A stretch of 64,000 bases of DNA from Planctomycetota bacterium (GTDB taxonomy: Bacteria > Planctomycetota > UBA8108 > SXIK01): contig CBDCXR010000004.1 in the NCBI GenBank assembly GCA_965223845.1, positions 2,432,001 through 2,496,000 of the forward strand, given 5' to 3'. How positions within the stretch are numbered: the stretch's first letter is position 1; each line of letters opens with the position of its first letter. The translations under genes and the position numbers were made by a program. The notes under the pieces are model-generated. The model had not been told where the DNA came from, did not search any database, and was given only the letters and a program-made list of their open reading frames with translations. Below, piece after piece: positions 6,797 to 63,794 of this stretch.

Positions 6797-8059
6797 GTGT
6801 CGATTGCGAACTCACTTTTGCGACCACCTCTCGTCGCCGCTCTCGTTCTTTTCGTCGTGCCCGCCCTCAGCGCCGGCGACTGGCCCCAGTTCCGCGGCCC
6901 CGGCGGCCTCGGCGCATCGAACGTCAAAGGCATCCCCACGAAATGGAGCCCGACCGAGAACGTCGCCTGGAAAACTCCGCTGCCCGGCCAAGGTGCATCG
7001 AGCCCGATCGCGCTCGGTGAGAGGCTCTACCTTACGTGCTACAGCGGCTACGGCAGCTATCCGGCGAACTTCGGAGAGATGGAGGCCCTCACGCTCCACG
7101 TCGTCTGCGTCGACGCGAAGAACGGCAGGATCGTCTGGGAGAAAAAGCTGAAGCCGGCGCTCCCCGAATCGAAGCGCGTTCGCGATCACGGCTACGCCGC
7201 TCCGACGCCGGCCACGGACGGCGAACACCTCTACGTGTTCTTCGGAAAGAGCGGAGTCTACAAGTTCGACCTCAACGGTAACGAGAAGTGGCGGGCAGGC
7301 GTCGGCTCGAAGACCCACGGCTGGGGCTGCGGCACGTCGCCCGTCCTCTTCGATGATCTCGTCATCGTCAACGCGAGCGTCGAGAGCGGGTCTCTCGTCG
7401 CGATCCACAAGAAGACGGGAAAGGAGGCCTGGAGCCGCGGCGGCATGAGATCGTCGTGGAACACGCCCCACCTCGTGCGGCTCGCGAACGGGAAGACCGA
7501 GCTCGTCGTGAGCGTGAAAGACAAGATTCTCGCGTTCGATCCCAAGTCGGGCGACCCGCTCTGGGAGTGCGATGGAATCGAGGACTACGTCTGTCCGAGC
7601 ATCATCTCGCACGAGGGTGTCGTCTACGCCGTCGGCGGCCGTTCGTCGCGCGCGATCGCCGTGCGGGCAGGCGGTCGCGGCGACGTGACGGACAGCCACC
7701 TACTCTGGAACGCGGGGGCCGGCGCGAACGTGTCGTCGCCGGTGATCCACGAAGGTCACCTCTACGGTGTGAGCGATCGCAATCGGACGGCGTACTGCAT
7801 CGATCTCAAGACGGGCGATGTGGTCTTCAAGGAACGCTTCCCGGGGCAACCGTACGCCTCGGCGCTCCTCGTCGACGGAAAGGTCTACGTGGTGACGCGC
7901 CACAGCGGAACCTTCGTTCTACCGGCGAAGCCGAAGCACGAGATCCTCAGCCAGAACGATCTCGATGACGGGAGCACCTTCAACGCGTCGCCGATCGTCG
8001 CCCACGGGCGACTGTACCTTCGGAGCGACAAGTTCCTCTACGCGATCGGAGGGAAGTAG
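6797..8059 (+). CDS. Secreted PQQ-binding-like (BamB-like) beta-propeller protein
   Basis: Signal peptide then 'DWPQFRGPGG', 'WKTPLPGQGASSPI', and C-terminal 'ASPIVAHGRLYLRS', the typical planctomycete propeller pattern. Confidence 0.88.
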   Translation: MSIANSLLRPPLVAALVLFVVPALSAGDWPQFRGPGGLGASNVKGIPTKWSPTENVAWKTPLPGQGASSPIALGERLYLTCYSGYGSYPANFGEMEALTLHVVCVDAKNGRIVWEKKLKPALPESKRVRDHGYAAPTPATDGEHLYVFFGKSGVYKFDLNGNEKWRAGVGSKTHGWGCGTSPVLFDDLVIVNASVESGSLVAIHKKTGKEAWSRGGMRSSWNTPHLVRLANGKTELVVSVKDKILAFDPKSGDPLWECDGIEDYVCPSIISHEGVVYAVGGRSSRAIAVRAGGRGDVTDSHLLWNAGAGANVSSPVIHEGHLYGVSDRNRTAYCIDLKTGDVVFKERFPGQPYASALLVDGKVYVVTRHSGTFVLPAKPKHEILSQNDLDDGSTFNASPIVAHGRLYLRSDKFLYAIGGK

Positions 8060-8200
8060 GGCGCCTTCCGCCACCTCGCGACGGTAGTCCGCGGTCTACG
8101 GACAGGGTCTAAACCCTCATTCCGCAGCGCCTTAAAGCCGAGGAGCGAGCGCCCTCCGCGCGGGCCAAGTTGGAGGCGATGGCGATCTCGAACAAAATAC

Positions 8201-8229
8201 TTGACCGTACGGTCAAATAACCGTATCCT
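8201..8229 (+). promoter_or_regulatory. Sigma70-type promoter overlapped by a palindromic TetR operator
   Basis: TTGACC-N17-TATCCT (8201-8206 / 8224-8229). A perfect 16-bp palindrome TTGACCGTACGGTCAA (8201-8216) covers the -35 box upstream of the TetR gene. Confidence 0.75.
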
Positions 8230-8293
8230 TCCATAGTCAGCCGCTGCCCGGGCCTCCGGACCCAGCGGCGAAGCCGACCCAAGGAGCCTCACC

Positions 8294-8881
8294 GTGCCGC
8301 GCCACCGCGAATTCGACCTCGACGCCGCCCTCGACACCGCCATGGAGGAATTCTGGCGCTGTGGATACGAGGCGACGTCTCTCAGCGATCTGCTCGCGGC
8401 CATCGGCATCCACAAGGGAAGCCTGTATCAGGCTTTCGGCGACAAGCACTCGCTGTACGTCGCGGCGCTCGAGCGTTACCTAGCGCGGGCTCGAGCGGAG
8501 CTGAGCGATCGGCTGGAGCACGCCGAGACGGCGCGCGAAGGCTTGATCCTCTGGCTCCGGTCGGCCGCCGAGCGGTGCGCCTGCACCAACGCGAGGATGG
8601 GTTGTTTCGGCGTGAACGCGATCGTCGAGCTCGCCCCGCACGACGAGACCGTGCGGGAGATCGTCGCTCGGCATATCGCCTCGATCGAACGGATCGTCCA
8701 AGGGGCGATCTCGCGCGGGCGACGCAGCGGCGAAATCCGCTCGAACGCGCCGTCCCCCCGGCTCGCGAAGGTTCTCGTGAGCAGTGTCTTCGGCCTCTAC
8801 GTGCGCGCAAAGGCAGCGCCGTACAAAGCGCGCGAGGTCGAAGAGATCGTCGCCACAGTGTCAAAGGTTCTCGATGGCTGA
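8294..8881 (+). CDS. TetR/AcrR family regulator (NemR/ComR-like)
   Basis: 'MPRHREFD...FWRCGYEATSLSDLLAAIGIHKGSLYQAFGDK' HTH; 'GCFGVN' in the ligand domain. Confidence 0.92.
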   Translation: MPRHREFDLDAALDTAMEEFWRCGYEATSLSDLLAAIGIHKGSLYQAFGDKHSLYVAALERYLARARAELSDRLEHAETAREGLILWLRSAAERCACTNARMGCFGVNAIVELAPHDETVREIVARHIASIERIVQGAISRGRRSGEIRSNAPSPRLAKVLVSSVFGLYVRAKAAPYKAREVEEIVATVSKVLDG

Positions 8882-8916
8882 GGCAAGAACGGACGGATTT
8901 TTTATTTGGCACAAAA

Positions 8917-8932
8917 ATGACCGATCGGTCAT
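8917..8932. promoter_or_regulatory. Second TetR operator, upstream of thioredoxin
   Basis: Perfect palindrome ATGACCGATCGGTCAT sharing TGACCG-NN-CGGTCA with 8201-8216, in an AT-rich intergenic context. Confidence 0.75.
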
Positions 8933-8982
8933 CTATTTTACCCCACGAACCTCTCGGTTCGGCACTCCCGAAAGGACCTGAC

Positions 8983-9006
8983 ATGAAGCTCGCGAATTGT
9001 TGCTGA
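8983..9006 (+). other. Putative upstream mini-ORF MKLANCC, in frame with thioredoxin
   Basis: RBS-like GAAAGGA ~6 nt before ATG 8983; TGA at 9004-9006; 72 nt (in frame) to the thioredoxin ATG at 9055. Confidence 0.35.
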
Positions 9007-43600: not shown

Positions 43601-43678
<78 letters not shown>

Positions 43679-44013: not shown

Positions 44014-44346
44014 CTACCCGCGCTTCGCGCGCTTCTTCTTGATGGTGGTTTTCTTCCTCGTCGACGCCTTTCTCTTCACCACCTTCTTCTTGTTCTTCTT
44101 CCCGCCCCGGCGCCGCGGGCGCGCGGAGCGCTTGCGGCGATAGTCGCGCTGCTCTCCCCAGGCCAGAAGGTCTCGGCCGCAATACCGAATCCCAGAGCGT
44201 TCCCCGAAACGGTAGAACTTGAGCTCCCCAGATTTTCGCGCTGCCCTTAAGACTTCGCGCGAAACACGGAGCAGGGAGGCAGCCTCCTGCTCCGTGTAAA
44301 TCTCTTCTGCGCGACCGAACGCCCCAGAGTCGGTCGTTCCCCTCAC
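44014..44346 (-). CDS. Excisionase-like HTH with a Lys/Arg-rich tail (start uncertain)
   Basis: 'IYTEQEAASLLRVSREVL..GELKFYRFG..IRYCGRDLLAW' plus 'KKNKKKVVKRKASTRKKTTIKKKRAKRG'. Confidence 0.65.
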   Translation of the reverse strand: MRGTTDSGAFGRAEEIYTEQEAASLLRVSREVLRAARKSGELKFYRFGERSGIRYCGRDLLAWGEQRDYRRKRSARPRRRGGKKNKKKVVKRKASTRKKTTIKKKRAKRG

Positions 44347-44388
44347 CTGTTCGGCATCATCGAAAAGGAAGTCGACCTCCCGCGAAGA

Positions 44389-44586
44389 GTGGCCTTCCGC
44401 CTCAGAACCACGCGGGAGCTCACCCGCGCCGAGATCCGGAAGATCGCCGAAAGACTGCGCGACGAGCGTGCGGAGCGAACGTTCATCGTCTACTATCTTC
44501 CGGGGATGGACGTCGACGCCGGAGCATGGGCGTCGTCGCACTTCAACCCCGATCTCGAGATCAGGATCTACGGCCGCGAGAAGTGA
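44389..44586 (+). pseudogene. Probable 5'-truncated fragment of a conserved hypothetical protein
   Basis: 'ERTFIVYYLPGM..GAWASSHFNPDLEIRI' reads like a real domain, but only ~40 bp separate it from the divergent gene. Confidence 0.45.
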
Positions 44587-45971: not shown

Positions 45972-47186
45972 ATGGCGAATCCTGAGCATGTCGCGAAGCT
46001 GAAGAAGGGGGTGAAGGCTTGGAATGCGTGGCGGGAGGAGAATCCGGAGGTTCGGCCTGACCTTAGCGGCGCGGACCTCCGCGGCGCGGACCTCCGCGGC
46101 GCGGACCTCCGCGGCGCGGACCTCCGCGGCGCGGTCCTCAACGACGCGAACCTCGGCGGCGCGGACCTCCGCGGCGCGGTCCTCAGCGACGCGGACCTCA
46201 GTGGCGCGATCCTCAGCGGCGCAAACCTCAGCGGCGCGACCCTCCCCAGCGCGGACCTCCGCATCGCGGGCCTCCGCAGCACGAACCTCAGCGACACGAT
46301 CCTCAGCGACGCAAACCTCAGCGACGCAAACCTCGGCGACGCAAACCTCGGCGGTGCAAACCTTAGCGGCGCAATCGTCTGCCGCGCGGACCTCAGCGGC
46401 GCAAACCTCGGCTTCGCTAATCTCTACCGCGCAGACCTCAGCGAATCGAAGCTTGGCCACGCGAAACTTTGGTCGACAATCTTTGCCGAGTGCAATCTCT
46501 CATCGACCACCGGCCTCGATTCGGTCGCTCATTGGGCGCCAAGCACGATCGGCCTCGACACACTCCAGCGCTCCGGCTCGCTTCCGGAAGTGTTCCTGAG
46601 AGGCTGCGGCTACTCGAAGTGGCACGTGGAGATGGCCAAGCTCCACGACTCGAATCTCTCCGCCCACGAGATCTCGGAGATCACGAACTCCATTTTCCTC
46701 GCACGCGTCGAAGGCCCGCTCTACCTCGGCGGCTTTTTCATCTCGTACTCGCGCGACGATGGCGAGCTCGCCGAGAAGCTGCGCGTTTCGCTAATCGAGG
46801 CTGACGCGTCGGTATGGATGGACGTACACGATGCGGTTGGTGGCCCACTCGAGCGTCAGATCGTCGACGCGGTTCGGCTGAACGACATCGTGCTGCTCGT
46901 TCTTTCCGAGCGATCGGTGAACAGCGAGTGGGTCGAAGGAGAGCTCCGCACGGCGAACCGGAAGGCGAAGGAAGAGAAGCGGGACGTGATCCTGCCGATC
47001 GCTCTCGACAAGTCGTGGGAACCGAAGGTCGAAGCGGAGCCGGTGCTCTGGCGGCAGGTTCAGCGGTGCAATGTGCTCGACTTCTCGGAGTGGCAAGATT
47101 CGGCGAAGTTCAGCGAGCAGTTCGAGAAGGTGCTCGCTGGCGCGAAGCGGTATTACGCGCCGAAGGCGAAGGAGACAGCCCCATGA
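45972..47186 (+). CDS. Pentapeptide-repeat + TIR domain protein
   Basis: 'MANPEH..WNAWR', A(D/N)LxG repeats, 'FFISYSRDD', 'SVNSEWVEGE'. Confidence 0.92.
   Translation: MANPEHVAKLKKGVKAWNAWREENPEVRPDLSGADLRGADLRGADLRGADLRGAVLNDANLGGADLRGAVLSDADLSGAILSGANLSGATLPSADLRIAGLRSTNLSDTILSDANLSDANLGDANLGGANLSGAIVCRADLSGANLGFANLYRADLSESKLGHAKLWSTIFAECNLSSTTGLDSVAHWAPSTIGLDTLQRSGSLPEVFLRGCGYSKWHVEMAKLHDSNLSAHEISEITNSIFLARVEGPLYLGGFFISYSRDDGELAEKLRVSLIEADASVWMDVHDAVGGPLERQIVDAVRLNDIVLLVLSERSVNSEWVEGELRTANRKAKEEKRDVILPIALDKSWEPKVEAEPVLWRQVQRCNVLDFSEWQDSAKFSEQFEKVLAGAKRYYAPKAKETAP
46071..46130 (+). repeat. Perfect 15-bp tandem repeat x4 encoding ADLRG
   Basis: GCGGACCTCCGCGGC four times. Confidence 0.9.
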
Positions 47187-52989: not shown

Positions 52990-55900
52990 TCAGAACTGTA
53001 CGTCGACATCTCCGTTGAAGTCGCAGCTGTCGACGTTGAATCCCACGGTTCGGGTTTCACGTTTCGCGTCGATCACTGCGGTCACCGAAACCTGGTAGAA
53101 ACCAGGCAGAAGCTGGATCGGATTCGACACCGTCCCGTACTCCCGGTGGAAATCGAAAGGCGGACACGGCAGAGTCGGAACGACGTCCTCGACGGGCACG
53201 TCTTGCACCACGTCGATACTGTCCAGACCGGCTGCCGTCCTGTTGCGGTTGGCGTTGATCCGCATGAGGTGAACCTTCTCCACCGCTTCAAGCGGAACGC
53301 CGCCTAGTGTCGCGACAACGCGAGCACCCGTCTTGACACCTTCTCCGCAGAGCGAACGCGTGACCGTTGTCGCGTCGCCGGTGACGGGGTCGGAGACGTA
53401 CGTGATCGAGATCTCTCCGAGTCGGGACCTTCCCACCTCCGTCGGCGAGAATGCGATGCGGAAGTCACCAGCGCCCACGATTTGCCCTGTCTGCAATACG
53501 ATCGGCATTGTGGGCAGCGCTACGAGCGAGTACTCGTCGGGATTCACGCTGATCGAGACGTCGGTAATTGTGAGATTACAGGTGCCCGAATTGAGAATCG
53601 GGAAGGGCAACCCACTCACGCAGGGTGCGATCGGCTGAATGACCGTCGCTGGGAACGCTAGGTCGTCAGGAACGCCGATCTCCGGCGCCGGGGTCGTTGC
53701 TGTTACCGTGAGCTCGATCACGGGTGTGTCCGGATCGTTGCTGACTATGCGGATCGTACAGGTGTGAGTCCCCACCTCAGTCGGCGTGTAGCGAATCGTA
53801 ACCGGCACGCAGAAGTCGTGGCTGACGGGGCGGGGGAATGGATTGTTTACGATTTCGAAGTCGTCGCACGGAGGAACGAAGGACACTGACGACACTTCGA
53901 GGTTGCTGAGCCCAAAGTTGCAGATGTGGAACTCTTTTTCCGCTTGTTCGTCCGGGCAAACGACGCCGAAGTCCGTCGAGCCTGTCACGCCGATATCTGG
54001 AGGCGGGGAATCCCCAGCGACGTCGATGTCGATCGTGGGTTGATCTGGGTCGTCCGTAGTGACGCGGAAGGTCGCCACCTGCGGCCCGAACACTGTCGGC
54101 TTGAACTGCAGAGGAATACCGACGTGCGCGTCGGGTCCGAGGATGATCGGGAACGGATCATCACCCGGGATTGTGCCGACAGAGAAGTCTGGGCCACCGG
54201 CGATCCGTACGACATCGATGATCTCGAGATCGCACGTCCCTTGGTTGAGCAGCTCTAGCGTCAGCACGCGATCTGAGTCAGAAGGAACATCGCCGAAATC
54301 ACCGCCAGCTTCGAGCGTCGCGTTGATGTCGGGGACGCCACCCTCGCCCGTCATCTCCAGATCGAGGACGGGCTCATCCCCGTCGTTCGACTCTATCCGC
54401 AGCGTGCCCGCCTTGAGTCCAGGAGAGCTCGCCGCGAACCGCACGGTGACGTCGATGTGACTTCCGGGTCTGACGATAAACGGCTGCGTTGGGTGATCCA
54501 GGACCGAGAAGTCGAGAGCACCGGCCACGACGGACACGCTGTCGACGAGAAGATCGGCACCGCCGATGTTGAAGATCGAGACGCGTGACTCCTCGAAGCT
54601 GTCCTCACAGGTGATGTTGAAATCGAGCGGAGCGTTGACACGAAGGTCGGGCTCATCGTCGAGTGAAAACGGTGCATTGGCGACGAGAGCGTAGTTCTGC
54701 GGCCCGTCGGGAACCGAAGTTCCTCTGACGCGGACGGTCCAGAATCCTTGCGCAGCGGCCGTCACCTGCAAGTTCTCGACCGTGTCGATCGTGTTGGGCC
54801 CCGTTGCCGTAGCATTGTTCGTGACGTTCACGGTTCCCGGGCCCGTGAACGGAAACCAGATGCCGCCGTCGGGATCTTCAGCTTCGACATCGAGATCGTT
54901 GACGATGTCATTCGCGGCGTTCGCAGCGACACCTTCGGGATCGATCCAGTTGAGCGTCAGCCGCAAGTTCCCAAGGTCGCCGGGAACGGCGAGCAGATAC
55001 TCGTCGACGTCGTCTTGGTCGACCGATCCCGTGATGATGCGTACCGCCCCGGCATCGATCGTGTTGACGGCCGCGAGCGCATCGAGAAGACCGTGCCCGA
55101 ACAGATAGTCGGGACCCGGACGGCCAAGATCCTGGGCCGTGTTCACGAGAAGCGCTTTGACGACGTCCGGCGATGGGTCTGCGCCGGCGTACTGGTCGCG
55201 ATAGCGTTCGACGAGAAGCGCCGTCGTTCCCGCCACCGTCGGCGAGGCCATGGATGTACCGCTCTTGGCGTCGTAGAGTCCACCCATGCCGGCCGGATCG
55301 GTAGCAGGCGGGCAAGAAGCGGCGTCGGCGGGATCGCACGTCGACTGCAGGTTGACACCGGTTGCCACCACGTCGGGTTTGATGCGTCCGTCGTCCGCGG
55401 GACCAGCAGAGCTAAACGCTGCTATCGCTGTCGGCGTCACGTCGATGACTGCGCCGACGGTGATGATGTTTTTCGAGTTTCCGTGCGTGCCTAGCGTGTC
55501 GTACTGCTGACCATCGGCGCCGGTTGTTCCGTCGCAGTCGCCGGGAGGATTCGGATTGCAGTCGTTCCGGTCGTTGCCAGCCGCTTTTACAACGATCAAG
55601 CCCGTGTCCTGGACAAGATCATCCCAGTCGGCGGCAACACTGTCGTACTGGCCAAAGAGGTTCTGATTGCCGGTCTGCGACGTCACTCCGCCTTGCGTGT
55701 CCCACCCAATGATCGATCCCCACGAGTGGTTGGCGATCACGATGTCATTGTCGTCGACAGCGTCGTCCTGCTCGGTCGCCGGGTCGTCACCAAAATCGTA
55801 GGAGAAGAGCTGGCCGGCGTTCGGCGCCATGCCCTCGCCGGCGGCGAAGTTGGCACCGCTGCTGATCATGGTTCCCGCGACGTGCGTTGCGTGGCCGCTA

Positions 55901-57030
55901 GCGGCTTGATCGTTCTCGACGACGGTTACACGCGGTGTCAGATCGGCGTGGGTCGCTAGGACGGGACCTCCATCCCACATCCCGATGACTACTCCTGTTC
56001 CGTCGAGATTGAACGGAGGTGCTTGGATGTCATCGACATTGGAGTTCTGTTGCGATACGACGTTGAATTCTCGCGGTGGCGGTGCGATCTCGGCGATCGA
56101 CCGGACAGCGGCGTCGGTCGCGAGTCTGGCGATCTGTGCAGCGTCGACTCGCGCCATAAACCGCTCGTTGAACAGGAGTCGGCTGCGATCGCCCACCTGG
56201 ACGCCGTAGCTGTCGACGACGCGCAGGGCGTGCGCCAGAGACACGTCTTCGTAGAATCGCAGATCGACCGACCAGGTTTGGTCTGCGTTCACGACATGTT
56301 CGCTGACGTTTCCGTAGAAAAGCGCAGCGGTGACTTTGTCTGCGGGCTCCACTAACTCGACGCCGCGGATGAGCGGATGACCATACAGCGCTTGCAACGC
56401 CCTGGAGTTGACCTTTGCCAGGTACGTCGTTCGCGCAATCGATTGATAGAAGCGCACGCCAGAGCGCACGAGACTAGCGCGCTCCCTGCCGCGCAGAGGT
56501 CTCGAGAATTGCACATAGACCTCACTGCGGCCAACCGGAGAGTCTATGGGTGTGGTGAGATTTGGAAGGAGGAATCTTGCACCGACATCCACAAGAAATG
56601 CTCTGTCTTCTGCGGAAGCCTGCGCTTGAACGATCGCTCGCGCGTCCTCGTTGAAGGCGTCCGCTCTGAACGGACTCTGCGCGGGCGAGCAAGCGACGGG
56701 AGCAGGGCCGCCACCAAATAAGGTCTGCGTGAGGTGGACGACGTCGGCGAGATTGATGTTGCCGTCGCCATCGACGTCGCCGTTCTGAACTCCTTCACTC
56801 GTCTCGCTGCAGGGAACCGGCGGCGGTCCTCCAGTGTAGAGATAGCGAAGGATATGAACCACATCGCCGATGTCGATATGCCCGTCGTTGTTCGCGTCCC
56901 CGTTTCGCGGCGGATCGAGATTGGTGGGCGAGGCTAGCGTCTGCGCCGTCAGCGGTGTCGCGAAACACGCAACTCCAACAGCCAGGCTCCAAACGAAACT
57001 CGGAATCGTCCTATCGGCCCGTAGCATCAT
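52990..57030 (-). CDS. S8 subtilisin-like protease with an N-terminal dockerin-like pair and C-terminal Ig-like (ASH/choice-of-anchor D) repeats
   Basis: Catalytic triad 'MWDGG', 'HATHVAGT', 'GTSMASP'; 'KPDVVA'; 'NGDANNDG'/'NGDVDGDG'; repeated 'N.G..DL.I'; AAGGAGG RBS. Confidence 0.92.
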   Translation of the reverse strand: MMLRADRTIPSFVWSLAVGVACFATPLTAQTLASPTNLDPPRNGDANNDGHIDIGDVVHILRYLYTGGPPPVPCSETSEGVQNGDVDGDGNINLADVVHLTQTLFGGGPAPVACSPAQSPFRADAFNEDARAIVQAQASAEDRAFLVDVGARFLLPNLTTPIDSPVGRSEVYVQFSRPLRGRERASLVRSGVRFYQSIARTTYLAKVNSRALQALYGHPLIRGVELVEPADKVTAALFYGNVSEHVVNADQTWSVDLRFYEDVSLAHALRVVDSYGVQVGDRSRLLFNERFMARVDAAQIARLATDAAVRSIAEIAPPPREFNVVSQQNSNVDDIQAPPFNLDGTGVVIGMWDGGPVLATHADLTPRVTVVENDQAASGHATHVAGTMISSGANFAAGEGMAPNAGQLFSYDFGDDPATEQDDAVDDNDIVIANHSWGSIIGWDTQGGVTSQTGNQNLFGQYDSVAADWDDLVQDTGLIVVKAAGNDRNDCNPNPPGDCDGTTGADGQQYDTLGTHGNSKNIITVGAVIDVTPTAIAAFSSAGPADDGRIKPDVVATGVNLQSTCDPADAASCPPATDPAGMGGLYDAKSGTSMASPTVAGTTALLVERYRDQYAGADPSPDVVKALLVNTAQDLGRPGPDYLFGHGLLDALAAVNTIDAGAVRIITGSVDQDDVDEYLLAVPGDLGNLRLTLNWIDPEGVAANAANDIVNDLDVEAEDPDGGIWFPFTGPGTVNVTNNATATGPNTIDTVENLQVTAAAQGFWTVRVRGTSVPDGPQNYALVANAPFSLDDEPDLRVNAPLDFNITCEDSFEESRVSIFNIGGADLLVDSVSVVAGALDFSVLDHPTQPFIVRPGSHIDVTVRFAASSPGLKAGTLRIESNDGDEPVLDLEMTGEGGVPDINATLEAGGDFGDVPSDSDRVLTLELLNQGTCDLEIIDVVRIAGGPDFSVGTIPGDDPFPIILGPDAHVGIPLQFKPTVFGPQVATFRVTTDDPDQPTIDIDVAGDSPPPDIGVTGSTDFGVVCPDEQAEKEFHICNFGLSNLEVSSVSFVPPCDDFEIVNNPFPRPVSHDFCVPVTIRYTPTEVGTHTCTIRIVSNDPDTPVIELTVTATTPAPEIGVPDDLAFPATVIQPIAPCVSGLPFPILNSGTCNLTITDVSISVNPDEYSLVALPTMPIVLQTGQIVGAGDFRIAFSPTEVGRSRLGEISITYVSDPVTGDATTVTRSLCGEGVKTGARVVATLGGVPLEAVEKVHLMRINANRNRTAAGLDSIDVVQDVPVEDVVPTLPCPPFDFHREYGTVSNPIQLLPGFYQVSVTAVIDAKRETRTVGFNVDSCDFNGDVDVQF

Positions 57031-57618
57031 GCGGTCCCTCCTTCGAGTCCATGACTCGACAAACCAAACCATTGCTACAAGGCACGTTCTCCACACAGCA
57101 CTCGCTGTGATAAGCGCGCGCCTTCACCCCATACCGATGACCAAAGAGGCGGCTGCAGAGCGCCACTTGCAACGGCTGCGATCGATCCTCAGTCGCCCGT
57201 TGCGTTTTCCACACGCCGCATTAGAGCACGATACCTGACCGAGTGTGACGCGCAATTACGTCAAATCTTTGATGCGAGCGTCTCGCGACGCGCGGGGCAT
57301 CGAGCGTCGTGGCGATACAAGACTGTTCGTTGCTATCTTTTGCGACGCCGCGCGTGAAAATCCTCGACGGCGGGGGGCTCCTGGGCAGATCGCAGGTGAC
57401 GTCTTGCCACGGGCGTGGAGCGTTACGTCAAGCCGGGTGGATTCAGAGACGGAGAGTCCTACTCCGCTTGCGCGTCGGTCCTGCAGCTGTCTCCAATTGC
57501 GCGTTCCGGCTAGTGCCGGCAACTCGCGACGTCCGCGCAGCCGAGCGCCTCGTCCGTCGGTCTCGGCCCGGGGGTCGCTCGGGTACACTGACGGCACTGT
57601 CCTCCTCGGAGTGCCGCC

Positions 57619-57859: not shown

Positions 57860-58030
57860 GATTCTTGGAAGATCAAAGTAAAAGATGAGCCTCATCTCTG
57901 GCGCCAAGTGCGTAAGGCCAACGTGCTCGACTTCTCGAATTGGGAGGCGCGGTTCGCAGAGCAGTTCAAGGAACTCGTCAAGTCCGCGAAGCTGTACTAC
58001 GCACCGAACGCGAAGGAACCGACGTCGTGA
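57860..58030 (+). pseudogene. C-terminal remnant of a TIR protein paralogous to 45972-47186
   Basis: 'DSWKIKVKDEPHLWRQVRKANVLDFSNW..QF..AKLYYAPNAKE' vs 'KSWEPKVEAEPVLWRQVQRCNVLDFSEW..QF..AKRYYAPKAKE'. Confidence 0.8.
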
Positions 58031-58473
58031 CCTGGTCCACCGACCGAAAGATCCTGAACCTCCACCGCGATCTCGGGATCGAACAGCAAGAACTCGCCGA
58101 GCTAGCCGGCATCACGCCGTCGGCGACGTCGGAAATCGAGAGGATGGAGTTTGGCCGGAATCCGCGGGCCGAGGTGCTGCGCGGCGTCGCTCGAGCGCTG
58201 TGGGTGACGGCGGACTACCTGCTTGAAGAGAGCGCGCCCTACCCTCCGACGGTTGGGGAGGATGCTCCGAAGGTCGAGCGGCCGAGGGAGATGGTTGAGA
58301 TGCGGGCGTCGGCCGAGGGGCGGGCGCACTTACGGGCTATGCGGAACCGACCGGTCGAGGCTCTTCGCGTGGCGAGGGCGGTTTTGGCGGCTGGTGAGCG
58401 GGGGCTGGTTGGTGGGGTTCGAGCGTTGGGCGAGAAGGGAACGAACGATGCCAGAGAAGGAAACGGGCCGTAG
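58027..58473 (+). CDS. XRE-family HTH regulator, copy B
   Basis: GTGA overlap; 'RKILNL..ARALWVTADYLL..APYPP.VGED.P.VERPREMVEMR' shared with copy A. Confidence 0.85.
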   Translation: MTWSTDRKILNLHRDLGIEQQELAELAGITPSATSEIERMEFGRNPRAEVLRGVARALWVTADYLLEESAPYPPTVGEDAPKVERPREMVEMRASAEGRAHLRAMRNRPVEALRVARAVLAAGERGLVGGVRALGEKGTNDAREGNGP

Positions 58474-59896
58474 ACGCGGCGACAGCTTCATGCCGTTCGC
58501 ACTGGGCGTGCTGACGGCTCTTCTCGTTGGAGTGCCGTTCACGATCTTCGGGCTGCACTTCCTGCGAGACAACGTGACGATGCTCGCAGTCGTCGCGGCG
58601 ATTTGCCTCGTGCTGTGCGGTCTCGTGTTCGCGTTCGTCTACGTGTTTCGCGAACGGATCTTCAATTGGTTCGGCGATCGCATGGGGCGCGGGGTCGTCG
58701 ACGTTCACCAGGCCGTGTCGGACGCAGTCGGTGACGTGGTGAACGGTGAATACAAGGCCGCAGCTCGCAAGGTCGACGTCGCGGCCGGCAGGTTTCTCAC
58801 GGCGTTCGCGTGGTTTCGGGCGCGGCAATTCCTTCTCATGGCGACCGTTGGGACGTGCGGAGCGTTTGCCGCTCTGATCGCCGATACTCTCCTCTTTCGG
58901 CAGAATGAACTGGTCGGAAAGCAGAACGGTCTTATCGAGCTCCAGAACAACACGCTCCTCGGACAGACGCGGCTGCTGGATATGCAGACGCAGTTCGCGA
59001 TCCGGCAGACGAGCCTGCTCGACGCACAAAATGTGCTGATCGAGGAACAGAACAAAGCGTTGCAGGATCAGCTGAAACAATTCGAGGAGCAGGACTATCG
59101 GGCGCGTAAAGCCCAGCTGGTTGCGACGCTGTACGACACGGAGGAATCGGGGCCGTTCGGTTTTCCCGGCCCAAAGGCGAGCGTTCGGGCCCGGGCGGAG
59201 GCAGCGAAGGCGCTTGTGGAGATCGAGAGGGGGCGCGACGACAGTGCGGATCTCTCGAATGCCGATCTGTCGGGTGCGAACCTCAGCGGCGCGAACCTCA
59301 GCGGCGCGAACCTCAGCGGCGCGAAACTCAGCGGCGCGAAACTCAGCCGAGCCGACCTCAGCGGCGCGAAACTCAGCGGCGCGGACCTCTTCCGCGCGAA
59401 TATGGAGGCAGCGAACCTCAGCGGCACGGACTTAGACAGAGCGGACCTCAGAGACGCGATCCTCTTCGAAGCGAATCTCAGCGACTCGACCCTCGCCGAA
59501 GCGGACCTCAGCGGCGCGATTCTCGTCCAAGCGGCCCTCGAAGGCGCGAAGTTACACCGCGCAGACCTCAGCCGCGCGAATCTCTCAGGCGCGATTCTCC
59601 GCCACGCGATCCTATCCACGGCGACCCTCAGCGAAGTGGACCTCGATGCGGCGGACCTCAGCGACGCGACTCTCGTCGAAGCGAACCTCAGCGGCGCGAA
59701 CCTGAAATCCGCGAGCCTCATCAGGGCGGACCTCAGTCGAGCGAACCTTCGCGGCGCGAATCTCAGCCCGCTAACACGGTATAGAGAATCAATCTGGGCC
59801 GGCGCCAACATCACGGGAATTAAGGACCCACCCGAGGGCCTCGCGGGGCATGCGCTGTCGCAAGGGGCCATCGCGGGCGCGACGGACGAGGAGTGA
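58448..59896 (+). CDS. Membrane-anchored coiled-coil + pentapeptide-repeat protein
   Basis: Three hydrophobic segments, Q-N heptads 'QNELVGKQNGLIELQN', and a long A(D/N)LS repeat tract including 15-bp perfect repeats at 59276-59320. Confidence 0.88.
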   Translation: MPEKETGRRRGDSFMPFALGVLTALLVGVPFTIFGLHFLRDNVTMLAVVAAICLVLCGLVFAFVYVFRERIFNWFGDRMGRGVVDVHQAVSDAVGDVVNGEYKAAARKVDVAAGRFLTAFAWFRARQFLLMATVGTCGAFAALIADTLLFRQNELVGKQNGLIELQNNTLLGQTRLLDMQTQFAIRQTSLLDAQNVLIEEQNKALQDQLKQFEEQDYRARKAQLVATLYDTEESGPFGFPGPKASVRARAEAAKALVEIERGRDDSADLSNADLSGANLSGANLSGANLSGAKLSGAKLSRADLSGAKLSGADLFRANMEAANLSGTDLDRADLRDAILFEANLSDSTLAEADLSGAILVQAALEGAKLHRADLSRANLSGAILRHAILSTATLSEVDLDAADLSDATLVEANLSGANLKSASLIRADLSRANLRGANLSPLTRYRESIWAGANITGIKDPPEGLAGHALSQGAIAGATDEE

Positions 59897-59904
59897 ACAC
59901 TTCG

Positions 59905-60021
59905 ATGAAGACGAAGACCAAAGCCAAGCTCGCCCTCTGGCTGCTAAAGCACCGGAAGTGGCTAGTTCCGGCGGGGATTGTGATTGCGGCGGGCGTAGTT
60001 TGGTGGGTCTGGGGGCGTTAG
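59905..60021 (+). CDS. 38-aa single-pass membrane peptide, copy B
   Basis: MKTKTKAKLALWLLKHRKWLVPAGIVIAAGVVWWVWGR; GAGGAG upstream; differences from copy A preserve the frame and are mostly conservative. Confidence 0.7.
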   Translation: MKTKTKAKLALWLLKHRKWLVPAGIVIAAGVVWWVWGR

Positions 60022-60613
60022 CGTCGGCCAGCCTGAGGATCGACCGGCGGCGGCAGGAAACTCAGAACAGCCGCGATTCGTCGGGACCTGGAAGAACCCG
60101 TGCGGAATCGAGATTGATTCGACTCCCCCACGTCGCCTACCGTGAGTAGGTCGTCACCGGTGGTGCTGGTTGGGCTCCGGGAGGTAGGCAGCTGTGAATT
60201 CTCGCTGTGGCGGCAACGCCTGCGGCGTTGTCGCCGGGGTGCGTACGCGTCGCAGGCTTTACGATCGTCTCAACGCGATTCGCCGAGCTATCGACGGCGG
60301 GCGACTACAGTCGCTCCGCGGCGCGAATGGAGGGCGAGAGCGCTCGAGCGATTCCTCTCCGCATCCGCTCACCGCTACGAGCGTCGAAGAAGCGGTCGAC
60401 AAGGCCTCGACACCGCCGAAGGCGCGATCGCGCTCGTTGACGGATCGATCTCTTTCGATTGGTGGCGGATTCCGAACGCCTTCGGCCAACCGGCCTACAC
60501 GTTCGAGGCTGAGGTTCTGATCGGCTCAGGCGCGCCCCCCTGCGCGTCGCCCTCGTCCGAGGTGAGTAAACCCTTACGGGTGGTCCTTGCGATTAGATTA
60601 GTGGTTATCATTT

Positions 60614-61345
60614 ATGAACGAAAAACTCTCTCGTTACTACCGAAGCGCTATTGGGAAAGGTGTCTGGATCGTCACATTTTGCGGCGTGTTCATCGCCCTA
60701 ACCGCGGAGAGACTTTCCGGCATCATCGGGCGCGACAATATCGCAATTGACCTCCTACGTAGCCTACTTTCGATGGCCGTCGTCGCTACGGTATTTCTTT
60801 TTTTTGAGAAGCAGGTTCGCACGCGATTATGGAAACACGCCTACCCCGAGCTCGATGTCTCCGGGAACTGGACGGGCGAAACGACGTATCAAATCCAGCA
60901 GATTCCCGAAGAGGGAAAGAAACCAGAGGATTACGAGCCCGAGACAGTCGATCACAGAATTGAATTCGACCAAACCTGCCTAACGCTAAAGGTCAAACCG
61001 ACCCTCGTAAAAGACTATCCGGGCGCATGGTACTCCCTTGTGGCCGGCTTCGAGGGAAATGAATTACGCTATGCTTATCAAGTAAACTATGGCAACGCTC
61101 CAAATCGACCGGAAAGCGCGACGGGGTACGAACAGTTACAGCTCATGGGCACGGAAGATGGAAAATCTCCGGCACAACTAACGGGAACTTTTTGTCATTG
61201 TGCGTGGGGACAACGGCCCGTCTATAGCGGCACGGTGACGTTTCGCCGGCAGCCGCCGCGCGAGGACCGAAGAGGAGTCTTTTCGCGCACGTGGACGATC
61301 TGCGTGGGACTGTTTGCCAAGTTTCTGAAGCCACGAGTGGATTAG
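60614..61345 (+). CDS. Cap15-like SMODS-associated 2TM beta-barrel (S-2TM-beta) effector
   Basis: Two N-terminal TM helices, 'LW...P.LDVSGNWTG', 'I.FDQT..TLKV', 'LRYAYQ', 'GYEQL', 'LTGTF', 'GTVTFRR'. Confidence 0.7.
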   Translation: MNEKLSRYYRSAIGKGVWIVTFCGVFIALTAERLSGIIGRDNIAIDLLRSLLSMAVVATVFLFFEKQVRTRLWKHAYPELDVSGNWTGETTYQIQQIPEEGKKPEDYEPETVDHRIEFDQTCLTLKVKPTLVKDYPGAWYSLVAGFEGNELRYAYQVNYGNAPNRPESATGYEQLQLMGTEDGKSPAQLTGTFCHCAWGQRPVYSGTVTFRRQPPREDRRGVFSRTWTICVGLFAKFLKPRVD

Positions 61346-61349
61346 TTCT

Positions 61350-62132
61350 ATGAATGCACGCAAGCCTCCGTGTCGCTCCGATCTACGCGGCGTTCTGATT
61401 ACCGGCGCCGCTTCGAGCATTGGGCGGCACGTGACGGAAAGGCTCGTAGGGCATGACGACCTTCAGTTCGTTCTCACCAGCAACAAATCGACCGTCACGA
61501 AGGAAATTACGGCCCGGCCCAACGTTGAGGCACGGGGCGGACTCGACTTGACACATCCAGGCTCTCTTGCAGTTCTGCGAGAGTGCTCCGAAAAATGTTT
61601 CGATGGACCGTTCGGCCTTGTGCACAGCGTTGGCGACTTTTGGTGCCATCGAATGATATCGGAGGTTTCCGTTTCAGAGGCTGCCAAGATGATGTCGAGC
61701 CACTATACGACTTTGTATGGAGTCCTCCACACTCTCCTCCCCGTCATGAAGAAACTCGGAGGTGGGCGCGTTCTGGCTTTTAGCTGCACTTCGGTTGGCT
61801 TCAACTATCCCGAGATGGCAGCGTTTACGAGTGCAAAGGCGGCTGTCGAAGCGCTAGTTCGGTGCGTCGCCAATGAATGGGGAGGCTTCGGGATCGCTGC
61901 AAACAGTATCGCCCTGTCCACCGTGGACACGCCTGACGTGCGGAAGACCAAGCCTCTCGCCAACATGGAAAACTACCTTTCTGCTCAAGAGATCGGCGTT
62001 TTGGTCGAGGACATCCTGCTGGCGTCAGGTCCGTATTTAAGCGGCAACGTCGTCAGACCACTCAAGTATTCGAAGACTTTTTATGGTCACGCATACTTTG
62101 CGAGAAACCCACCGTCGACTTGCAATGAATAG
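61350..62132 (+). CDS. Atypical SDR-fold protein
   Basis: 'VLITGAASSIG', 'VHSVG', 'AAFTSAKAA' (Phe in place of the catalytic Tyr of YxxxK), 'YLSGNVV'; 4 bp after the Cap15-like gene. Confidence 0.8.
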   Translation: MNARKPPCRSDLRGVLITGAASSIGRHVTERLVGHDDLQFVLTSNKSTVTKEITARPNVEARGGLDLTHPGSLAVLRECSEKCFDGPFGLVHSVGDFWCHRMISEVSVSEAAKMMSSHYTTLYGVLHTLLPVMKKLGGGRVLAFSCTSVGFNYPEMAAFTSAKAAVEALVRCVANEWGGFGIAANSIALSTVDTPDVRKTKPLANMENYLSAQEIGVLVEDILLASGPYLSGNVVRPLKYSKTFYGHAYFARNPPSTCNE

Positions 62133-62302
62133 CCGGTGCTGCTGTCGAGTGGCCAAAGGATTGAAGCGCGGTCGACCTCACAACACCCGGCGGCAATTTC
62201 CTTGAAACGGCTCACCGCTCGTGCAGACCAGAGGAGAAGCCGTTGACGCCCCCGACTCGCCTCCTCTACCGTGAGTAGATCGTAGGCATCGATCAAAGAC
62301 CG

Positions 62303-62575
62303 ATGAGTGAACGCGTCACCAAAAGATTGGTGAAAGGAGGGTTGCTGGGCTCCTGCGTTGCGCCCGCACTCCTGGTCACCTTCGGGGCGATTTGCGGCTA
62401 CGCCGGCGGGACGAAGATGTTCGGTTCGTGGGGCGGCGGCTCCCCGCCGGGAACGTTCCAGGCGGCGTACAGTGGTGCCCTCTTGGTGACACTCGCCTTT
62501 GGCCTGCCGGTCGCCGGTATCGGCTTGGCAGTCGGAGCTGCCATCGCCTACAGGACTCGCTCGCGCAGTCGATGA
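62303..62575 (+). CDS. Small two-TM membrane protein
   Basis: Two hydrophobic helices; weak support. Confidence 0.45.
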   Translation: MSERVTKRLVKGGLLGSCVAPALLVTFGAICGYAGGTKMFGSWGGGSPPGTFQAAYSGALLVTLAFGLPVAGIGLAVGAAIAYRTRSRSR

Positions 62576-62713
62576 TTTCTCAGCGATCGGCGCACGTTGA
62601 CGACGGTCGATTCCACCGGCCGAGAGGCACCGTGCCTCCCGCGCCCACAACTGCACGCCTCGCCAAGCCCCCTCGGCTGGGTCTTTTCGCGAAACGAAAC
62701 AACGAGCTCGGAC

Positions 62714-62941
62714 ATGAGTGACTCGAAAGCCCCCTCGGCATTTCAGTTTCCGGGCACGCTCCCGGGCATCGTGTTGCTGGTCTGGGCCGTCTCGTTCTCG
62801 TTGTTCAAATCCGACATTCCATCTACGGTCTTCTGGTTGGTGTTCGTTTCGGTGTCTCTCTTGATCGTCCTCGTTCCGAGTTGGCTAGCGGGGCAACGGG
62901 CTAAGCGGACCTACCTCGAGAAATCGGGGTCGCCCGAATAG
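62714..62941 (+). CDS. Small two-TM membrane protein
   Basis: 'MSDSKAPSAF..LVWAVSFSLF..FWLVFVSVSLLIVLVP'. Confidence 0.5.
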   Translation: MSDSKAPSAFQFPGTLPGIVLLVWAVSFSLFKSDIPSTVFWLVFVSVSLLIVLVPSWLAGQRAKRTYLEKSGSPE

Positions 62942-63159: not shown

Positions 63160-63666
63160 TCACACCAGTCCCTCAAGCTGCCCCTCCTCGAGATTCGAAT
63201 AGAACTCGATTTCGTTGCGAGGAGTGGACTGCACGGTTTGGTAGGAAGGGAAGTAACCCGTCGGTCGCAGCTGGAAGCGGGAAAACGTCGCGAGGATCGC
63301 CGATCTTCTCCGGCGAAGGTAGCTCACCAGCAGGGGCTGATCGAAGTCGTTCTGGCTGAGCAACCGGAGCGCGGAAAAGAGCTGAGAGAGCGAAACTCGA
63401 AAGAACGGCGGATCGCAGAGAATCAGGCCGAACTTGCGCCCGGTCCACTCGGGACGGTGGATGTCGAATCTGCGGAACCCTGGAAGACTCGCGAATCGAT
63501 CATCGATGTCGAGAATCGAGACCTCGACGTTCGACTCGACCAGTCGCTTCCCGAGAAGAGGCGCGCAGAGCAAACACGGCGAGGCCCACCCTCCGACGAA
63601 CGCGGCCAGTCGGTCCAGAGTGGCGGCGTCGAAGAAGTATTGCTCGTTCTCGTGGAGTTCGTACAT
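63160..63666 (-). CDS. DPPF-type methyltransferase resembling the N6-adenineMlase/EEF1AKMT1 family
   Basis: 'ELHENEQYFFD', 'LLCAP', 'LDIDDRF', 'LILCDPPFF', 'IEFYSN'. Confidence 0.7.
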   Translation of the reverse strand: MYELHENEQYFFDAATLDRLAAFVGGWASPCLLCAPLLGKRLVESNVEVSILDIDDRFASLPGFRRFDIHRPEWTGRKFGLILCDPPFFRVSLSQLFSALRLLSQNDFDQPLLVSYLRRRRSAILATFSRFQLRPTGYFPSYQTVQSTPRNEIEFYSNLEEGQLEGLV

Positions 63667-63794
63667 TGAGAACTGGCGGCTACGGGTGGAGCCAACCACA
63701 AAACGGGTGGCGGTAGTTCATGATCCTCTGCATCCCGAACAAGGACAAGTGCTGGCGTCGAGTGCTCGACGCTGCCGATTAGAGGTCGAATCCG

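Follow-up and report, generated by a model that had tools for sequence, protein, structure and literature searches.

A conserved gene pair of a Cap15-like membrane protein and a remodelled SDR-fold protein, a candidate anti-phage module

Introduction

What controls a membrane effector of the Cap15 type when the gene beside it encodes a dehydrogenase-fold protein in place of a nucleotide cyclase? This question is raised by two adjacent open reading frames (ORFs), ORF1 and ORF2, on contig CBDCXR010000004.1 of a Planctomycetota bacterium (GenBank assembly GCA_965223845.1). They lie in a stretch of 64,000 nucleotides (positions 2,432,001 to 2,496,000 of the forward strand), which was analysed as a whole and is referred to here as the window. 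An original prediction, made from the sequence alone, read the pair as a two-gene defence module in which ORF2, a short-chain dehydrogenase/reductase (SDR), makes or modifies a small-molecule ligand, or senses NAD(P)(H) non-catalytically, and so gates the membrane effector ORF1. Overall, this interpretation was partly supported by our analyses, which assign ORF1 to a known effector superfamily and point to its SDR neighbour as a new class of partner.

In the accessible parts of the published reports, the 2TMbeta barrel of Cap15, OptE, PanE and the Cas13b-linked 2TMbeta proteins binds a small nucleotide, which triggers or prevents oligomerisation and membrane damage. The partners described there are CD-NTase, mCpol, mini-DAC, Cas13b, TIR and phosphodiesterase proteins. 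In Panoptes (the mCpol protein OptS with OptE) and PanDA (the mini-DAC protein PanS with PanE), a constitutive ligand is described as holding the effector off. The available sections of a preprint (PMC13692257) report that tRNA fragments derived from Cas13b feed a 2TMbeta effector, place other 2TMbeta genes beside TIR or phosphodiesterase genes, and propose diverse ligand-generating enzymes.

Results

ORF1 is a distant member of the Cap15/2TMbeta superfamily

ORF1 had no match in Pfam, PADLOC or NCBIfam. The original prediction described its product as two transmembrane helices followed by beta-strands and as Cap15-like, and both descriptions held. Hydropathy marks two membrane segments, and the AlphaFold2 model (predicted local distance difference test, pLDDT, 94.5; predicted template modelling score, pTM, 0.86) is a helical hairpin followed by a beta-barrel, with nine strands within residues 84-212. 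The top two VIA structure matches of this model were the Cap15 structures 7N34 (Z 13.0) and 7N35 (Z 12.9) from Yersinia aleksiciae. The superposition on 7N34 had a root-mean-square deviation of 2.3 A over 101 of 108 residues (model residues 75-213), and the target-normalised Foldseek template modelling (TM) scores were 0.70 for 7N34 and 0.69 for 7N35. Designed barrels and avidins trailed Cap15 at VIA Z 9-12, the designed barrels scoring 11-12; because they are so near in score, the match in barrel fold is not decisive by itself.

We therefore turn to the sequence family for the assignment. A word-indexed protein search with ORF1 returned two relatives only, at 61% and 59% identity, and the same kind of search with a wide ORF1-family alignment returned five proteins. 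A three-sequence HMMER profile, run against 1.84 billion representatives, raised the family to 135 proteins at E<=1e-3, of which 112 also passed E<=1e-10; almost all are about 200-250 amino acids long. An alignment of 100 of these sequences has invariant columns at W73, W86, Q120, Y155, G171, G191 and G206 and the recurring motifs LWK, QDC, YAY, GYE and F.HC. For comparison, a profile search identified true Cap15_CD_rec genes in seven of 401 genomes of the window's phylum; two of these loci were judged to adjoin CD-NTase genes, by gene layout and first residues only. Six of the seven genes entered the Cap15 reference alignment, L015 being omitted because a longer overlapping ORF obscured the gene. 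Comparing the 100-sequence family with the six Cap15_CD_rec proteins in hhalign gave a probability of 95.9% and an E value of 6.1e-9 over 135 columns, which span the end of the second transmembrane helix to the C-terminus. In addition, language-model atlas features placed ORF1 among PF18153 clusters (0.95).

Against this assignment stands the Pfam model itself. PF18153 (Cap15_CD_rec) did not match ORF1 at E<=0.1 or anything in the genome at E<=1, and it detected only two of the 100 family members, weakly (best E 0.00099). Sequence searches of solved structures with ORF1 profiles gave no matches, and another profile gave one chance match at E 0.75. The profile match, the shared architecture of two transmembrane helices and the fold match nevertheless place ORF1 in the Cap15/2TMbeta superfamily, and since PF18153 misses it, ORF1 is, as judged from profile and model, a distant member that belongs to a separate family. 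Compared with Cap15, it shares the two N-terminal transmembrane helices, an eight-stranded barrel of the same topology and an LW...P.L.G.W.G pattern at the start of the barrel. It differs in having only about 17% identity, an invariant set of its own (W86, Q120, Y155, G171, G191 and G206) and the QDC, YAY, GYE and F.HC motifs. An LKPRV motif after the C-terminal helix is kept in the closest relatives only, according to the alignments.

Along the strands, the conserved barrel residues are spaced by two, as in W86/G88/T90/Y92, Y155/V157/Y159, G171/E173, G191/F193/H195 and G206/V208/F210/R212. This spacing suggests that they lie on one face of the sheet, as a pocket would need.

The effector gene and its SDR partner form a conserved pair

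When genomes, one per species, were scanned with an alignment of six sequences, five loci came up, in metagenome-assembled genomes (MAGs) labelled Cyanobium, Candidatus Angelobacter (two), Thermoanaerobaculia and Cyclobacteriaceae. All three of these loci that have downstream DNA (L002, L003 and L006) carry an adh_short gene of 249-283 amino acids directly downstream on the same strand; the contigs of the other two stop at or inside the effector gene. A metagenome scan added six loci, five of them with an SDR gene directly downstream, and as L011 and L012 are identical, this corresponds to four of five distinct loci. Metagenome contigs searched with another ORF1-family alignment yielded no loci. 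With the window included, the SDR clade directly follows the effector in eight of nine distinct loci that have downstream DNA, drawn from several phyla.

The two genes are closely spaced, at -4 to +30 nucleotides in seven of the eight pairs. The exception is L002, whose longest ORFs share 55 nucleotides, an overlap attributed to over-extended starts. Pairwise identities of the effectors correlate with those of the SDRs (r = 0.67, 28 comparisons). Exactly one partner-grade SDR (378-410 bits) was present in four of five carrier genomes searched, each time abutting the effector gene, and in the fifth genome the contig ends at that gene. Among the 401 genomes of the window's phylum, an SDR of partner level was found in a single one, where it is the window's own gene. 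A recurrence at eight of nine loci of a clade found in one of 401 genomes places the pairing far beyond chance, and we hold with high confidence that the Cap15-like protein and the SDR form a conserved module. The two-gene module of the original prediction is thus well supported by conserved adjacency, and its pairing with a Tyr-to-Phe SDR is found again in other genomes. A complex predicted for the SDR with ORF1 residues 68-243 scored 0.00, which speaks neither for nor against binding.

No nucleotide cyclase accompanies the pair

The original prediction saw no cyclase nearby, and the searches extended this absence from the flanks to the genome. Below E 0.05, no Pfam family matched the ORFs flanking the pair (59850-60750 and 62087-62941), nor was there a cyclase among the weak matches, and the same scan gave no cyclase remnant in the upstream interval 60050-60600. 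Six-frame searches of the 7.9-Mb host genome found no SMODS domain (E<=1), no mCpol (PF18182, E<=1) and no class III cyclase (PF00211, E<=0.01). SMODS was likewise absent from all five other carrier genomes (E<=0.001). Two DAC-domain genes are present in the host genome, at C4:1128886 and C4:1521009, with open frames of 372 and 496 amino acids.

The pair therefore differs from each of the cyclase-based systems. Unlike Cap15 of the cyclic-oligonucleotide-based anti-phage signalling system (CBASS), ORF1 has no CD-NTase in its operon or genome and is partnered by an SDR-fold protein. Panoptes differs by its mCpol, which the host genome lacks, and Pycsar by its class III nucleotide cyclase, which was not found there; in the case of PanDA, the DAC genes of the host lie about 1.4 and 1.0 Mb, respectively, from the locus. 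Because the carrier genomes are without SMODS, the pair is not a guardian of CBASS either.

A Cap15-like effector for which no cyclase is found could also be an orphan of a CBASS, Panoptes or PanDA system that has lost its cyclase, with the SDR as an unrelated neighbour. This reading has almost no probability in our view, given that the SDR clade follows the effector closely in loci of different phyla and that the divergence of the two genes co-varies, that a partner-grade SDR occurs only once among the 401 genomes of the phylum, and that none of the six carrier genomes searched has SMODS. A CBASS remnant in particular is contradicted by the conserved effector-SDR pairing.

ORF2 has an SDR fold with a remodelled active site

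ORF2 matched the Pfam families adh_short_C2 (2.1e-20) and adh_short (9.5e-18), and none of the best 25 of its 188 NCBIfam matches reached its cut-off, all falling far below. The model of ORF2 (pLDDT 91.8) had TM scores of 0.73-0.80 to FabG-type structures, and by sequence and model ORF2 is a protein of the classical SDR Rossmann fold. A profile of eight partner SDRs found 215 clusters at E<=1e-30 among 8000 candidates scored, and the 120 listed were all above 300 bits. The few clusters of this clade that bear a name belong to MAGs labelled Methyloglobulus, Pedosphaera, Candidatus Magnetominusculus, Ruminococcus, Oscillospiraceae and Clostridia.

The FTSAK and TGAASSIG motifs, from which the original prediction recognised an SDR with Phe for Tyr, were both found in ORF2 (Table 1). 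In a HMMER alignment with tropinone reductase-I (1AE1), C146, F159 and K163 of ORF2 align with Ser146, Tyr159 and Lys163. Beyond what had been predicted, the catalytic Ser is thus replaced as well, by an invariant Cys, and three His residues are invariant or nearly so. All 128 aligned clade members keep F159, K163, C146, S145, S148, H100, W98 and G95, and also E176, P154, T194, K201 and R252; H92 is retained in 127, H118 in 125, D66 in 121 and R45 in 114. As S145 and S148 adjoin C146 and are invariant, a shifted catalytic Ser is possible. Compared with the classical SDRs FabG and tropinone reductase-I, ORF2 shares the Rossmann-type fold as well as Lys163, Asp66, Gly95 and Thr194. The clade differs from them by Tyr to Phe, Ser to Cys, NNAG to H-x-x-G, and a replacement of the middle Gly of TGxxxGxG, which is Asp or Glu in 112 of the 128 members and Ser in ORF2.

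In classical SDRs, adenine and 2'-phosphate are contacted from around the positions of D66 and R45, and the nicotinamide ribose from around K163 and T194. Judged from its residues, ORF2 appears to keep these hallmarks of dinucleotide binding, namely Asp66, Arg or Lys after beta2, Gly95, Lys163 and Thr194. A decayed SDR pseudoenzyme was rejected on account of the invariance of the former active site. The site instead looks remodelled and strongly constrained, not simply dead, and as if it still had a specific task, performed by some chemistry other than that of the Ser-Tyr-Lys relay.

Loss of the catalytic Tyr and Ser in all 128 members, with D66, R45, G95, K163 and T194 kept, would also be expected of a sensor. 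Regulators that sense NAD(P)(H) and have an SDR fold lacking the Tyr are known. ORF2 could have no catalytic role and act as a sensor of NAD(P)(H) or as an antitoxin, like NmrA or HSCARG, that binds the effector and releases it when NAD(P)(H) or redox state changes, with no diffusible product, and the co-varying identities of effector and SDR would fit such a contact. However, pure sensors usually vary at former catalytic positions, whereas Cys146, His92, His100 and His118 show little or no variation, which points to chemistry or to highly specific contacts with a ligand. Furthermore, the interior of the effector barrel is conserved as in ligand-binding relatives, which would be needless in a purely protein-gated effector. 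We regard the non-catalytic sensor as the main rival to a ligand-controlling enzyme, although an unlikely one.

Two further SDRs with Phe in place of the catalytic Tyr were seen. L027 (G184:C35:17664-21389), which comes from the 401 genomes of the phylum, encodes at 1495-2286 a protein more remotely related to the partner SDR (180 bits) with Phe at YxxxK (AAFDAAK), a canonical-looking TGATGYVG loop and no Cys. Its gene lies between an ABC-type ATPase gene and membrane-protein genes without Pfam matches, and a 2TMbeta gene was not found in the genome that carries it. The structure 3I4F, annotated as a 3-oxoacyl-ACP reductase, has Phe at the catalytic Tyr position (AFAAAK) and the loop TAGTKGLG, and is the nearest solved natural Tyr-to-Phe SDR seen in the alignment.

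Table 1 Features of ORF1 and ORF2, in window coordinates
Feature	Position	Strand	Basis or remark
ORF1, 243 amino acids	60614-61345	+	ORF list; intact
Predicted transmembrane helix 1, residues 13-31	60650-60706	+	Kyte-Doolittle windows 1.8; within model helix 3-38
Predicted transmembrane helix 2, residues 45-63	60746-60802	+	Kyte-Doolittle up to 1.94; model helices 43-51 and 54-76
Cap15-type beta-barrel, presumed ligand receptor, residues 77-214	60842-61255	+	Model strands; 7N34 alignment
C-terminal helix beyond the barrel, residues 223-237	61280-61324	+	Model
ORF2, 260 amino acids	61350-62132	+	ORF list; intact
Glycine-rich loop TGAASSIG	61401-61424	+	Clade pattern TGA[NST]S[ED]IG
HSVGDFWCH, replacing the NNAG motif	61623-61649	+	Clade pattern H[SFC][VA]G
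SCTS with invariant Cys146	61782-61793	+	Aligns with catalytic Ser of tropinone reductase-I
FTSAK (within FTSAKAAVE), Phe159 for catalytic Tyr, Lys163 retained	61824-61838	+	Clade alignment; 1AE1

The pair looks like an acquired cassette

The pair was originally described as two AT-richer genes 4 bp apart, and the coordinates and composition bear this out. The stop codon TAG of ORF1 (61343-61345) is followed by TTCT and then by the ATG of ORF2 at 61350. GC content over ORF1 and ORF2 is 0.542, whereas the 5 kb on the left and on the right have 0.628 and 0.618, respectively, and the window has 0.64; in sliding windows the GC content drops to 0.50-0.56. GC at third codon positions is 0.59 for ORF1 and 0.62 for ORF2, and 0.72-0.82 for most neighbouring genes. 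On account of both measures the cassette looks acquired, and the two genes, 1.5 kb in total, look like a horizontally transferred, self-contained unit. A scan of the locus for promoters and terminators found no promoter-like site and a single terminator-like site, which lies inside ORF1, a count below the shuffled expectation.

A direct repeat brackets the pair, with copies at 60134-60160 and 62263-62289 that are alike in 17 of 18 bases and share the core CTACCGTGAGTAG. The copies are 2129 nucleotides apart, and the left one lies about 450 nucleotides ahead of the drop in GC. The repeat could mark the cassette ends or be due to chance.

Neighbouring genes and distribution

Upstream in the window, an HTH_17 (excisionase-like) gene (44014-44541, minus strand) comes next after tRNA-Asp (43601-43678). 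Beyond it are two genes without Pfam match and a pentapeptide-repeat/TIR fusion (45972-47186, plus strand) that also matches the PADLOC models SAVED_TIR and ThsB. What looks like a variable island starting near the tRNA gene may extend to ORF1 and ORF2. The same variable stretch holds, on the minus strand at 52990-57096, a secreted-type S8 subtilase of 1368 amino acids with a dockerin-like segment and HYDIN/VesB-like Ig domains. Closer to the pair lies a capH-like HTH_3 gene (57940-58473; PADLOC capH 4.9e-8), directly upstream of an ORF of 557 amino acids (58223-59896) with strong pentapeptide-repeat matches and an N-terminal third that is hydrophobic by eye. These two may form a separate two-gene module; the capH-like and pentapeptide genes are not conserved beside the effector-SDR pair in other loci. 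On the minus strand, 1 kb downstream of the pair (63160-63699), lies a gene for 179 amino acids whose Pfam match is 'Probable N6-adenine methyltransferase' (3e-14); a restriction partner for it was not seen.

Defence genes lie near the pair in the window and in four of nine distinct comparison loci with flanking DNA (L002, L003, L006 and L012). In L002, from the Cyanobium MAG, a KAP-family P-loop NTPase gene (7610-9001) with a match to PDC-S20 (1.3e-138), a candidate defence system, follows the SDR gene on its strand after 87 nucleotides. A neighbour at L003 is a type IV restriction-like helicase gene (3.7e-40); L006 has a TIR gene (1.1e-29) and an integrase, L007 a transposase and L012 HsdM. 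Searches with hidden Markov models did not find the effector family in 400, 400 and 370 other genomes of three clades. The context fits defence-island cargo, and by its distribution and composition the cassette appears to be rare, patchy and horizontally moving.

A rare and patchy cassette with transposase and integrase genes nearby could also be selfish. The pair may be a conserved non-immune operon, either a cassette of the addiction or toxin-antitoxin kind that lends stability to mobile DNA, or a complex of enzymes that is anchored in the membrane and has a lipid or envelope metabolite as its substrate. Its PADLOC match is absent, L010 sits among housekeeping genes, and the sister SDR with FxxAK at L027 shares its operon with genes for an ABC ATPase and for membrane proteins, all of which would suit this reading. 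On the other side, every characterised member of the effector superfamily acts in anti-phage defence, as far as the accessible parts of the literature go, defence genes flank the pair in the window and several comparison loci, and the pair was not found on plasmids. We consider a non-immune operon improbable, though more probable than an orphaned effector.

Discussion

Our analyses describe a member of a known effector superfamily whose partner is of a new class. The module is secure, a defence function is probable, and the mechanism is one that we infer from related systems. In the reading we favour, ORF1 and ORF2 form a ligand-gated effector module, most likely an anti-phage system of the abortive-infection type in which the SDR is the signal-controlling partner; to this statement as a whole we give an even chance. 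Its parts differ in strength. That the pair has a role in anti-phage defence or another conflict is fairly likely, and that ORF2 makes or converts the gating ligand is a tentative proposal.

In this module, ORF1 would be anchored by its two helices in the membrane, and its cytoplasmic eight-stranded barrel would read the level of a ligand. As a non-canonical enzyme, ORF2 would stand where other 2TMbeta systems have a CD-NTase, mCpol, mini-DAC or Cas13b, and would produce, convert or use up a small molecule; the most plausible candidate is one that is derived from NAD(P) or dependent on it. Infection would shift the level of this molecule, so that the effector assembles and the membrane collapses. 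The ligand could either activate the effector, as in Cap15, or hold it off, as in Panoptes. Since ORF2 keeps dinucleotide-binding features, the most economical guess is a ligand that derives from NAD(P) or depends on NAD(P)(H).

Known systems offer precedents for such an arrangement. Panoptes and PanDA are likewise two-gene operons of a small ligand-controlling enzyme and a 2TMbeta effector, and their hold-off logic would, by analogy, also suit a metabolic-type enzyme such as an SDR. In contrast to them, the effector gene comes first in the ORF1-ORF2 order and the partner is not a nucleotide cyclase. The 2TMbeta-Cas13b system is similar in that, according to the available sections of PMC13692257, the barrel serves as a modular receptor fed by non-cyclase enzymes. 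The association of 2TMbeta genes with TIR genes makes NAD-derived ligands conceivable by the same analogy.

Several observations weigh against the ligand-gated anti-phage reading, in addition to the failure of PF18153 to recognise ORF1. The case for defence is made by gene neighbourhood, mobility and effector homology only. PADLOC 2.0.0 has no model for ORF1 or ORF2, viral contigs contained no relatives of either, plasmids gave no tblastn match with two family members, and at L010 the neighbours are the housekeeping genes UvrC and TruB together with a PIN gene. As for the pairing, no SDR gene was found within 750 nucleotides downstream of the effector at L009, and all 11 comparison loci were retrieved by one peptide pattern, HCAxGQxPVY, so that the sample covers the branches of the 135-representative family that carry it, and divergent branches outside it may have other partners. 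As for the enzyme, with both Tyr and Ser replaced, the proton relay of classical SDRs is unavailable, which makes it uncertain whether ORF2 is an enzyme at all, and the acidic residue in the glycine-rich loop of 112 of the 128 members could weaken binding of the NAD(P) pyrophosphate.

We found no description of a Cap15 protein paired with a short-chain dehydrogenase in the accessible literature, where neighbourhood surveys in extended data or supplements could list one. The word 'dehydrogenase' is absent from the main texts of the Panoptes paper, the PanDA preprint and the Cas13b-2TMbeta preprint PMC13692257, as far as these were available.

In the accessible reports, 2TMbeta effectors are increasingly recognised as modular, ligand-gated executioners. 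An SDR-fold partner adds a quite different class of enzyme to their systems, and its presence implies a ligand, or a logic of sensing, that has so far not been described for these effectors. The partner clade is also of enzymological interest, as it comprises more than 200 clusters and has Cys, Phe and Lys, invariant in the 128 aligned members, where SDRs have Ser, Tyr and Lys. The small size of the two-gene pair makes it directly testable. It is a rather doubtful possibility that the SDR partner generates or interconverts a second messenger made by neither a cyclase nor a nuclease (for example one that is NAD(P)-derived or redox-modified), or reports the NAD(P)(H) pool, and that this is read by a Cap15-type barrel. 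If true, either an immune signal of a new class or a guard over cofactor metabolism would be coupled to an effector that disrupts membranes, and the partner would be a new catalytic type of SDR, with a Cys/Lys/His site and Phe for Tyr.

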